Of a DNA stretch of 3,540 bases, positions 1,341 to 3,540 are shown one piece after another; within the stretch, counting starts at the first letter, position 1, and each line of letters begins with the position of its first letter. The position numbers and the translations under genes are program-made. The notes below the pieces were generated by a model. The model ran no database searches, was not told where the DNA came from, and saw nothing but the letters and a program-made list of their open reading frames with translations. The stretch is from Escherichia coli (GTDB lineage Bacteria > Pseudomonadota > Gammaproteobacteria > Enterobacterales > Enterobacteriaceae): assembly GCF_003334255.1 (NCBI RefSeq), contig NZ_QOWU01000119.1; one strand, 5' to 3'.

Positions 1341-1462
1341 TTATCAAAACGAGAATGACGCGGGTTTAGTGGCACCGGGCTGAACTCACCGGGAGGCACC
1401 CGGCACCATGTTCATGGTGATACAGAAATGCGGCTTCAGCCCCTCTCCGGAGGGGCTTTCTT
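1341..1462 (+). ncRNA. Hypothetical small structured RNA of about 120 nt, running from the candidate -10 to the intrinsic terminator
   Basis: There is no credible ORF in this interval. Consecutive hairpins: CCGGG-aggca-CCCGG (1389-1403), perfect palindrome CACCATG-tt-CATGGTG (1404-1419), and the terminator hairpin at 1438-1457 followed by a T-rich tract. Purely structural inference. Confidence 0.25.
1438..1462 (+). terminator. Rho-independent terminator, + strand
   Basis: AGCCCCTC (1438-1445), loop TCCG, GAGGGGCT (1450-1457): an 8-bp GC-rich stem followed by TTCTTAT. Confidence 0.6.
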
Positions 1463-1468
1463 ATGGAC

Positions 1469-1496
1469 AAAAAAGCCCGCGCTGGGAGACGCGGGC
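1469..1496 (-). terminator. Rho-independent terminator, - strand, back to back with the + strand terminator
   Basis: On the + strand: A6 (1469-1474), then GCCCGCG (1475-1481), 8-nt loop, CGCGGGC (1490-1496). Read on the - strand this is a 7-bp GC stem followed by TTTTTT. Confidence 0.5.
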
Positions 1497-1680
1497 GGCA
1501 AGGAATAAACAATAAAACGTGAAGTAATATTTCAGCTGGCGAATAATACCCCATAGTAATCACTCTGCGCAACTGCGCGGCCTTTTTCGTATTGCGGGCT
1601 GTAGTCTCCCTTCTGCCATTGTCCTGTAACTTCCGGACTTCAGCTCGCTCCTTATCTGACTCACAACATTATCCCGACCG

Positions 1681-1689: not shown

Positions 1690-3540
1690 ATGACATTTAA
1701 ACACTACGATGTGGTCAGGGCGGCGTCGCCGTCAGACCTTGCGGAGCGACTGACACAAAAACTGAAGGAGGGGTGGCAGCCATTTGGCAGCCCTGTGGCC
1801 ATCACGCCTTATACCCTGATGCAGGCCATTGCGGCGGAAGGTGATGTCACCACACCGGTGGTGGTGCAACCGTCGGGTGATGGTGGCGCTGTTATCAGCA
1901 CCACCAGCGAACCGGAATATTACTTTGTCATTGCGCTGGCCGGGCAGTCCAACTCGATGTCTTTTGGCGAGGGGCTGCCGCTGCCGGAGACATATGACCG
2001 TCCGGACCCGCGTATTAAACAGCTGGCGCGTCGCAGTACGGTGACGCCGGGTGGTGCCGCCTGTAAATATAACGACATCATTCCGGCAGACCACTGTCTG
2101 CATGATGTGCAGGATATGAGTAACCTGAATCATCCTCATGCAGACCTGAGTAAGGGACAGTACGGTTGTGTGGGGCATGCTCTGCATGTTGCCAAAAAGC
2201 TGCTGCCGTTTATGCCTGCGAATGCGGGTATCCTTCTTGTTCCATGTGGCCGTGGCGATTCGGGATTTACTGCGGGGGCCGAGGGGGCGTTTAACGAAGC
2301 GTCGGGAGCGACCGCAGGCTCGTCCCTGTGGGGGGCGGATAAACCGCTGTATCATGACCTGGTCAGCAGAACCCGTGCGGCCCTGAAGAAAAATCCGAAG
2401 AACGTGCTGTTATCAGTGATCTGGATGCAGGGAGAAAAAGATGTCAGTTCGGGGAGACATGCAGAACACAATGCGCTTTTCCTTGCCATGGTAAATCAGT
2501 TCCGTACGGAACTGGCAGATGTGGCAGAGCAGTGTACTGGCGGGACAACGGCCAGCGTCCCGTGGATTTGCGGTGATACCACGTACTACTGGAAGGAAAG
2601 GTATGCAGCGCCGTATGAGGCGGTTTACGGTGGGTATAAAGGCAAAGCTGCGCAGAATATTCACTTTGTGCCGTTGATGACGGATGAGCATGGTGTGAAT
2701 GTGCCGACAAACGAGCCGTCAGAAGATCCGGACATTATCCCGGCGGGATACTATGGCGCTGCGTCACGCACTGCCAGTAACTGGACGTCAGCCGATCGTA
2801 AAACGCACTTCAGTTCATGGGCGCGAAGAGGCCTTGTTTCAGACCGCCTGGCAGGTGCCATTTTGCAGTACGCCGGGCGGACATTATCGTTCCTTACCGG
2901 GCAGAGCGCACCGCAGTCGGGTGGTACAACTCCCGGTGATGATGTCAGTCCGGGGGTACCGGGTGTTGAGAAACCGCAGGATGGCGGTGTTGCTGGTACT
3001 GGTCATGATGAGGCCGTGAGCAGTACCAGGACGGTGGCTGAATATGATGCGAACAGTGGAAATGGTGTATGGACAGAGCAGCAGTGGGGGGCTGCCGGTG
3101 GCAAAGGCACTGTGACTGATGACGGTGGACGGAAAGCGCTACGACTGGAAAAACAGCCCGGTAAACTGACGTCCTGGAAAATGTTCCGTACTGTTGCAGT
3201 GGAGGAGGCAAAAAATCTTCTCAGCAAGGGGGGTGAAATTGCCGTACGGTTCAAAATTCCGGATGGAAGCGAACTGGTGAACGGACAGTTTGTCTTTGGT
3301 CTCTACTGGCCGGTGTCGCAGTGGGCGTCAGGCGCGGCAGCAAACAGTATGCTGGCATCATTCTTCCTTCAGACGGATGCATCAAATCTGAATCTTATGC
3401 ACCACAAGGGCACGTCGAATGCACAACTGGGTACATTTGGTGCGTTTGACCATAACTGGCATACGGTTGTTTTCCGCTTTGCGGGAAATAACAGCGAAAG
3501 AGTCGTTCCGGTGATTGATGGTACAGAGCAGACGGCGTTT
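1690..3540 (+). CDS. nanS-p: Prophage-type sialate (9-O-acetyl-N-acetylneuraminate) O-acetylesterase, NanS-p family; 5' partial, continues past the window end
   Basis: ATG at 1690 with a strong SD. I translated all 617 codons to the window end with no stop. The N-terminus MTFKHYDVVRAASPSDLAERLTQKLKEGWQPFG... matches the DUF1737-type N-terminal domain. It is followed by the SGNH/SASA esterase block YYFVIALAGQSNSMSFGEGLPLPETYDRPDPRIKQLAR with the catalytic GQSN serine motif, as in E. coli NanS (YjhS) and the Stx-phage paralogues. A Gly/Pro/Thr-rich linker (about 2890-3010) and a further C-terminal domain follow. Confidence 0.9.
   Translation, partial: MTFKHYDVVRAASPSDLAERLTQKLKEGWQPFGSPVAITPYTLMQAIAAEGDVTTPVVVQPSGDGGAVISTTSEPEYYFVIALAGQSNSMSFGEGLPLPETYDRPDPRIKQLARRSTVTPGGAACKYNDIIPADHCLHDVQDMSNLNHPHADLSKGQYGCVGHALHVAKKLLPFMPANAGILLVPCGRGDSGFTAGAEGAFNEASGATAGSSLWGADKPLYHDLVSRTRAALKKNPKNVLLSVIWMQGEKDVSSGRHAEHNALFLAMVNQFRTELADVAEQCTGGTTASVPWICGDTTYYWKERYAAPYEAVYGGYKGKAAQNIHFVPLMTDEHGVNVPTNEPSEDPDIIPAGYYGAASRTASNWTSADRKTHFSSWARRGLVSDRLAGAILQYAGRTLSFLTGQSAPQSGGTTPGDDVSPGVPGVEKPQDGGVAGTGHDEAVSSTRTVAEYDANSGNGVWTEQQWGAAGGKGTVTDDGGRKALRLEKQPGKLTSWKMFRTVAVEEAKNLLSKGGEIAVRFKIPDGSELVNGQFVFGLYWPVSQWASGAAANSMLASFFLQTDASNLNLMHHKGTSNAQLGTFGAFDHNWHTVVFRFAGNNSERVVPVIDGTEQTAF

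Follow-up and report, generated by a model that had tools for sequence, protein, structure and literature searches.

A weak hairpin upstream of nanS-p in an Escherichia coli lambdoid prophage, probably a decayed junction terminator within a minus-strand sRNA gene

A convergent pair of small RNA (sRNA) genes, placed between a moron and a conserved open reading frame, was described by Tree et al. 2014 (PMC4104026). In prophage Sp4 of Sakai, the minus strand carries two Hfq-CRAC peaks of that study, EcOnc08 (1179938-1180010) and EcOnc21 (1180016-1180101), and the northern probe for EcOnc08/21/42, AATAATATCCGACAGTAATCACTCTGCGCAATAGC, detects a band of about 271 nt. The 5′ ends of AsxR and AgvB were mapped in the same work as primary by RLM-RACE. 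In EPEC, the RIL-seq sRNA E2348C_1409.E2348C_1408.IGR (1444797-1444978, minus strand, 182 nt) has targets that share GGCAAGG, complementary to its seed CCUUGCC. The supplement of Pearl Mizrahi et al. 2021 (PMC8550237) places PasD2 of EPEC E2348/69 at NC_011601 741157-741328 on the plus strand and gives the PasD northern probe as CATGCGCAGCCAGAACTCACAAGG.

Terminators at module boundaries are also familiar from lambdoid phages. As far as the citing text describes them, the factor-independent terminators that flank lambdoid morons (Juhala et al. 2000, cited in PMC4104026), like tR′ downstream of PR′, place a GC-rich hairpin and a U run at a boundary of the late operon, and Q-modified polymerase reads through both; measured against that account of the moron-flanking terminators, the hairpin described below falls short of terminator strength. 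Late transcription from PR′ is antiterminated by Q and reads through terminators, as is established for lambdoid biology (PMC7547250). Nor should our hairpin be taken for the Q-regulated tR′, whose place is near Q, upstream of the window. In the literature searched on terminators and promoters between stx and nanS-p, we found no description of it.

The window, i.e., the whole stretch of 3,540 nt analysed here (E. coli assembly GCF_003334255.1, contig NZ_QOWU01000119.1), covers the late region of a Stx-phage-like, lambdoid prophage in which stx genes are lacking. Its gene order is the end of a DNA methyltransferase gene, tRNA-Ile, tRNA-Arg, a moron ORF, STnc100 and nanS-p; in the nearest E. coli genome (97.7% identical), the Q antiterminator precedes this stretch, and genes for DUF1378, DUF826, holin and lysozyme follow it. 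The features used in the text, in window coordinates, are the following.

284-359: tRNA-Ile(CAT); labelled Met(CAT) by ARAGORN, the homologue in PGAP being tRNA-Ile (ileZ type, lysidine-modified CAT)
369-445: tRNA-Arg
724-1152: moron ORF; TolA-like according to the PGAP annotation in the closest genome
1259-1468, plus strand: STnc100-family sRNA (Rfam RF02076, 165.6 bits, E = 1.3e-38)
1438-1457, plus strand: STnc100's own terminator, from the consensus terminator scan
1468-1661, minus strand: Hfq-binding sRNA gene, homologue of Sakai EcOnc08/21/42 and of the EPEC sRNA E2348C_1409.E2348C_1408.IGR; unannotated in the window
1496 to 1475, minus strand: terminator stem of that sRNA, followed by T6 (U6 in the RNA); strong, from the consensus scan
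1497-1503, minus strand: seed CCUUGCC, as the reverse complement
1543-1548, minus strand: TATTAT, -10-like, 18 bp from TTGCGC
1565-1580, plus strand: short hairpin CUGCGC-AACU-GCGCGG, 6 bp including one U·G
1567-1572, minus strand: TTGCGC, -35-like, reverse complement of GCGCAA (5′ arm and first two loop bases)
1583-1587, plus strand: T5 run, separated from the stem by a CC spacer (1581-1582)
1696 to 1668, minus strand: sigma-70-like site ATGTCA-17-GATAAT, a consensus match only; candidate promoter of the long antisense sRNA
1690-3540, plus strand: nanS-p coding sequence (SASA-family sialate O-acetylesterase), ATG at 1690, continuing past the window end

The window STnc100 is a homologue of EcOnc05 and EcOnc27 and is related to PasD; together with the minus-strand sRNA it forms a convergent pair of the Tree et al. 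2014 type. The moron ORF and nanS-p are spaced by 537 bp, and this gap of ~540 bp holds two convergent Hfq-dependent sRNA genes, STnc100 on the plus strand and an EcOnc08/21-type gene on the minus strand, which is useful for annotation. The moron ORF, whose product of 142 residues is a predicted lipoprotein with an N-terminal, lipobox-like LTTGC, occupies the slot held by stx in Stx phages. The window lacks argO, which in Sp4 is the third tRNA.

The element under study reads GCGC (1567-1570), AACT (1571-1574), GCGC (1575-1578), GGCC (1579-1582) and TTTTT (1583-1587). A preliminary description of this DNA had recognised the same letters, though it set the T run at 1584-1588, one nucleotide too far, and it counted a stem of only 4 bp, whereas C1565-G1580 and U1566·G1579 extend the GCGC core to six pairs (five of them G-C) with a loop of four and the tail CCTTTTTCGT. 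Its distance of about 100 nt from the esterase start was accurate, as the T run ends 102 nt before the ATG at 1690, and the neighbouring terminators that it took for granted are real (STnc100 at 1438-1457 on the plus strand, and 1496 to 1475 on the minus strand). RNA folding, which it proposed as a check, gave no more than chance for the sequence taken singly: the 46-nt local fold has z = 0.07, and 106 of 200 shuffled sequences fold equally well.

The stem of an intrinsic terminator is GC-rich, typically 7 bp or more, with a folding energy of about -10 kcal/mol or better. The window hairpin, with 6 bp and -8.6 kcal/mol, lies below this range, and its U tract does not abut the stem: CC stands between the stem and U5, and the tail score nT is 1.47 versus 4.2-5.4 in the full forms described below. 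A d'Aubenton-Carafa-type discriminant of hairpin plus tail, calculated with modern ViennaRNA energies and reliable only for the ranking of forms, gives d = -38.3 for the window short form, +32.5 for the long form, +52.1 for PasD1, +55.7 for PasD2, +14 for the window STnc100 terminator and +34 for the window minus-strand terminator. A lenient terminator scan of the window returned six sites (2.5 +/- 2.0 in shuffles), and the hairpin is among those that pass. A search of the window against Rfam (E <= 1) gave no family at the hairpin. Minus-strand matches to OmrA-B (21.8 bits) and anti-hemB (19.2 bits) were far under the gathering scores and were treated as chance.

Relatives of the locus were collected in two ways, both independent of the hairpin sequence. 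Eighty IMG/VR loci were gathered via the NanS-p protein alone, and an anchor of 17 nt, placed 45 nt downstream of the hairpin, added further IMG/VR loci, giving 158 anchored segments including the earlier loci; all of these come from E. coli prophages that are close relatives of one another, on which conservation tests have low power. The hairpin is found in most of the 80 loci, 94-130 nt before the nanS-p ATG, and in about 150 of the 158 anchored loci. It recurs at the same position in most of the related prophages, in many of them about 110-125 nt upstream of nanS-p, and is therefore a real, inherited element despite its z of 0.07. The full form consists of GGCUGCGC, a loop and GCGCGGCC, followed directly by U5-U8, with 8-bp stems of -14.0 to -15.3 kcal/mol across forms and an abutting U run. 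The window hairpin is a truncated version of this 8-10 bp hairpin: where the long form has its two basal G-C pairs, the window has C·C and U·C, which leaves 6 bp and the CC spacer before U5. The sampled loci carry the following forms.

Long form: AAGGCTGCGC-AACT-GCGCGGCCTT; 8-bp stem of -15.3 kcal/mol, or 10 bp via flanking AA/TT and -17.8 kcal/mol; U run abutting the stem
Short form (window type): loop AACT or AATA; different antisense cassette; about three quarters of the anchored sample
PasD type: GGCTGCGC-ATG/ATT-GCGC(G/A)GCC, then T7-8; sole terminator after an STnc100-like body; no antisense cassette
Type D (L071 and L077): re-registered, with a shifted, weak hairpin
Hairpin absent: several groups whose upstream sequence is unrelated

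The long form accompanies AsxR/AgvB-type antisense cassettes, including those of the Stx2 phage Sp5 (hairpin at 1268707-1268731) and of Stx1 phages. In one locus (L143), a canonical terminator, GCCCGC-TTCG-GCGGGC-TTTTCTTTT, replaces the hairpin about 40-75 nt upstream of AACTTCCGGACT, ahead of the conserved nanS-p leader, which suggests that terminators are common at the junction of cassette and nanS-p. Tandem STnc100 copies also occur upstream of nanS-p, four in L025 (180-1295) and two in L005 (598-1290).

The function of the intact form is indicated by PasD. The published 3′ end of PasD2, 741328, is the final T of the T8 that follows GGCTGCGC-ATT-GCGCAGCC, and for this reason we regard the intact hairpin as the working terminator of an abundant, northern-validated sRNA; the PasD probe spans the hairpin 5′ arm. 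The terminators of PasD1 and PasD2 (EPEC; the Sakai homologue is EcOnc13, and the family is related to STnc100) have the stem core CUGCGC / GCGCGG in common with the window element and lie at an equivalent position, 113 nt upstream of the sialate esterase ATG versus 125 nt in the window. Both 8-nt arms (16 nt) and the T run are identical between the window element and the PasD1 / type C terminator. The flanks of the PasD type and the window type, on the other hand, align poorly, with 70% mean column identity over five sequences and a 20-column gap in two PasD-type rows. The sharing of stem core and T run at an equivalent position within such flanks is therefore evidence of homology rather than chance. 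The two elements differ in that the PasD stem counts 8 bp, with 3 nt in the loop and an abutting U8, whereas the window has 6 bp, a 4-nt loop, the CC spacer and U5; furthermore, the PasD hairpin is the only terminator of its sRNA, whereas the window hairpin lies 100 nt past STnc100's own terminator, with the antisense sRNA gene in between. A clean insertion of the anti-sRNA cassette between PasD body and terminator was considered and found unsupported, as what lies between conserved core and hairpin is simply unrelated sequence.

Sequence variation at the hairpin was counted in the 45 haplotypes (118 loci) of the window-type cassette.

1536-1572 (-10-like hexamer, spacer, 5′ arm and first two loop bases): 9 of 37 columns variable
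1573-1590 (second loop half, 3′ arm, CC spacer, T run and next three bases): 12 of 18 columns variable
1591-1640 (downstream leader): 10 of 50 columns variable

The loop, 3′ arm and spacer of the hairpin are the most polymorphic part of the leader in these haplotypes, and the 5′ arm, the first two loop bases, T5 and ATAATA (1543-1548) are essentially invariant. A selected RNA hairpin should constrain both arms equally, and the difference in variability between the arms thus argues against selection for the RNA hairpin. The GCGC/GCGC core and T5 are invariant in all 45 haplotypes and leave room for a weak function on the plus strand. Among 15 distinct variants of the element, 92% of cells pair, and there are five one-sided changes of wobble type, namely G-C to G·U (three times), C-G to U·G (once) and U·G to U-A (in PasD2). 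Four of the five distinct stem substitutions are G·U-compatible on the plus strand, which mildly favours plus-strand RNA pairing. The 15 variants contain no two-sided compensatory change, and covariation tests gave nothing above shuffles, by which the structure is neither proven nor refuted. Changes in long-form loci are wobble-compatible only; in the short-form clade, 11 loci also carry a pair-breaking G-to-A at the stem base (GCGCGA), L153 is short of one C in the CC spacer, and L199 has lost the 3′ arm entirely.

The region of the hairpin lies inside the minus-strand sRNA gene, a point that the preliminary description had missed. Positions 1430-1720 of the window align with Sakai Sp4 and EPEC PP6 at a mean column identity of 97%, and in both homologues the minus strand is transcribed across the hairpin site. 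With zero shift, the EcOnc08 peak corresponds to window 1470-1542 and the EcOnc21 peak to 1548-1633; the Sakai coordinates of the paper are those of NC_002695.1, which equal NC_002695.2 at Sp4 (1.18 Mb; checked via the EcOnc52 terminator) and are 137 nt lower than in.2 at Sp5 (1.268 Mb), a shift for which the mapping of EcOnc peaks must correct. The EPEC sRNA spans window 1468-1649. In Sp4 (NC_002695.2), the plus-strand T run corresponds to about 1180051-1180060, and the minus-strand starts predicted below would fall near 1180005 (short form) and 1180129 (long form). The EcOnc08/21/42 probe equals the plus-strand sequence at 1542-1576 (30 of 35 positions match) and therefore detects a minus-strand RNA that contains the 5′ arm and loop of the hairpin. 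In addition to this probe site and the column identity, the window shares with EcOnc08/21/42 and the EPEC sRNA the terminator, the seed CCUUGCC and the orientation convergent with STnc100, and the gene is thus of the EcOnc08/21/42 type; the loop is AACT in the window versus AATA in Sp4 and EPEC. We note that EcOnc08/21/42 is the gene containing the hairpin, not the hairpin itself.

Candidate 5′ ends of the minus-strand sRNA are 1649, where RNA-seq coverage in EPEC would put it, about 1661, as predicted by the sigma-70-like site, and about 1739, should its length be 271 nt. The sigma-70-like site overlaps the start codon and Shine-Dalgarno sequence of nanS-p, and its predicted start at about 1661 roughly fits the 182-nt EPEC antisense sRNA. 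The 5′ part of the sRNA is antisense to the nanS-p 5′ UTR, so that cis-antisense control of nanS-p is conceivable. In the minus-strand RNA the U·G pair becomes a C·A mismatch, and the hairpin occurs in neither the MFE nor the centroid fold (z = -0.44). AsxR (RF02703) and AgvB (RF02702) have no match in the window at E <= 1. Assignment of the minus-strand sRNA to HnrS (EcOnc10/11/12) was rejected, those loci lying ~5 kb from the AgvB1 (Sp10) and EcOnc03 (Sp9) loci, and a placement of EcOnc42 (Sp15) opposite the start of the nanS-p coding sequence, antisense to ~78 nt of it, was withdrawn, the version shift differing between prophages (0 at Sp4, +137 at Sp5).

Taken together, we consider it somewhat better than an even bet (a probability of about 0.55) that the window element is a decayed copy of the junction terminator, a poor terminator on the plus strand and no regulated attenuator, whose conserved remnants are better explained by use of the minus strand. 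The intact hairpin would mark the junction at which, in lambdoid (Stx-type) prophages, the variable cassette of moron and sRNA genes meets the module of nanS-p and lysis genes; there it would end a plus-strand sRNA of the STnc100/PasD family and, in the lysogen, insulate that module from transcription that arrives from upstream. In the window, STnc100 has its own terminator, the space from there to the old hairpin is taken up by the convergent minus-strand sRNA gene, and the hairpin itself has lost two basal G-C pairs, being left with 6 bp and a 2-nt spacer before U5. Because of the weakened stem and the spacer, at most a small fraction of plus-strand transcripts is predicted to stop here, and the STnc100 terminator upstream would do most of the insulating in the lysogen. 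The 5′ half, the T run and the initial AA of the loop are likely kept for the minus strand, as part of the sRNA gene and as a -35-like hexamer. The window hairpin is an ordinary relic of a known kind, not a new control element, and it shows where the STnc100/PasD module formerly had its 3′ boundary.

Read on the minus strand, GCGCAA is TTGCGC and could serve as the -35 element of a sigma-70 promoter which, with TATTAT and with T5 as an A-tract just upstream of the -35, would drive a short antisense sRNA. From the spacing of TTGCGC-18-TATTAT, we infer a start at about 1537 and a 70-nt RNA ending at 1468. The hairpin DNA of the AsxR, AgvB and EcOnc03 promoters (Tree et al. 2014, PMC4104026; RF02703, RF02702) likewise gives TTGCGC at -35 to -30, an 18-bp spacer and a TAnnAT -10, and this geometry is kept in the window. 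Seven loci have AsxR or AgvB matches that reach or exceed the Rfam gathering score (L001, L003, L005, L028, L042, L045 and L052), and in each of them TTGCGC stands at exactly -35 to -30 from the 5′ end of the model, the end mapped by RACE, followed by an 18-bp spacer and TAAAAT. Across the 45 window-type haplotypes TTGCGC is invariant but for one haplotype and TATTAT is invariant, while the spacer carries several variants; GCGCAA is kept in the type D loci and in the L199 deletion although the 3′ arm is changed or lost; and the PasD-type loci, which have no antisense cassette, have ATGCGC in place of TTGCGC and no -10. The predicted 70-nt RNA folds significantly stably (z = -2.4) and matches the EcOnc08 peak. 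On the other side, just 3 of the 6 positions of TTGCGC agree with TTGACA, the hexamers stand 18 bp apart, and the promoter scan of the window did not report the site; the published RNAs of the cassette (182 nt in EPEC, ~271 nt in Sakai) start upstream of it; and, as compared with AsxR and AgvB, the sRNA body and terminator on the window minus strand are of another family (EcOnc08/21/42), with a body that neither model matches. Such a promoter, which is compatible with the decayed terminator, is a real but still tentative possibility. More speculative, and in our judgement rather doubtful, is a fossil of dual use, in which the loop and 5′ arm of an STnc100/PasD terminator were co-opted as the -35 of AsxR/AgvB/EcOnc03 promoters when the anti-sRNA cassette was acquired, the window terminator having since decayed with its promoter geometry kept. 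If true, the EcOnc08-type sRNA would have an unannotated short isoform of ~70 nt starting at about 1537, and one 20-bp palindrome would act as terminator for one strand and supply the promoter core for the opposite one, recording the assembly order of prophage sRNA modules as a small, clear example of sRNA cassettes built by reusing terminator palindromes as promoter cores.

A functional weak terminator, attenuator or pause site on the plus strand, which would limit read-through from the moron and STnc100 into nanS-p and the lysis genes in the lysogen, is unlikely in our estimate. Its homology to a proven terminator, the invariance of the GCGC core and T5, the passing of the lenient scan, the mostly G·U-compatible substitutions, and a plus strand that folds better than the minus strand (with its C·A mismatch and hairpin-free MFE fold) speak for it; the short stem, the 2-nt gap, only five U residues and d = -38 speak against it, as do the further decay of the stem base in 11 loci, the loss of the 3′ arm in one, and the two stronger hairpins upstream. 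By analogy with the late operons of lambdoid phages, Q-modified transcription would ignore the window hairpin altogether. Still less probable is a structural or Hfq-binding role within the minus-strand sRNA, as an internal stem with an A5/ARN-like tract: the EcOnc21 peak (Sakai 1180016-1180101, minus strand) does cover the site and the northern probe overlaps it, but the hairpin is outside the predicted minus-strand folds, the changes that are G·U-compatible on the plus strand are mismatches on the minus strand, and AAAAAG gives just two ARN triplets. That the hairpin is a chance feature with neither history nor function would agree with z = 0.07 and with the lack of compensatory double changes among the variants, but we find it barely credible in view of arms and T run identical to the PasD1 / type C terminator, at the same distance from nanS-p amid poorly alignable flanks, and of its presence in about 150 of 158 anchored loci.

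The preliminary description had suggested a weak attenuator or pause site; the terminator-like nature of the element was borne out by its homology to the PasD2 terminator with a published 3′ end, and the regulatory role was not. RNAalifold on 12 diverse sequences returned only the 6-bp hairpin and a 4-bp downstream stem, with no alternative (antiterminator) fold. The sequence upstream of the hairpin differs between cassette types while the hairpin stays, and therefore no conserved antiterminator partner is possible. Neither a competing structure, a leader peptide nor a ligand domain was found, and Rfam had no match at the hairpin at E <= 1, which leaves regulated attenuation without support. 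The hairpin matters little for regulation; nothing points to its control of nanS-p or of the lysis genes. Closer to the start codon, the plus strand at 1672-1683 can form a small hairpin, UCCC-GACC-GGGA, which takes in the first bases of the nanS-p Shine-Dalgarno sequence GGGAGGA and is conserved in window-type and Sp5-type leaders.
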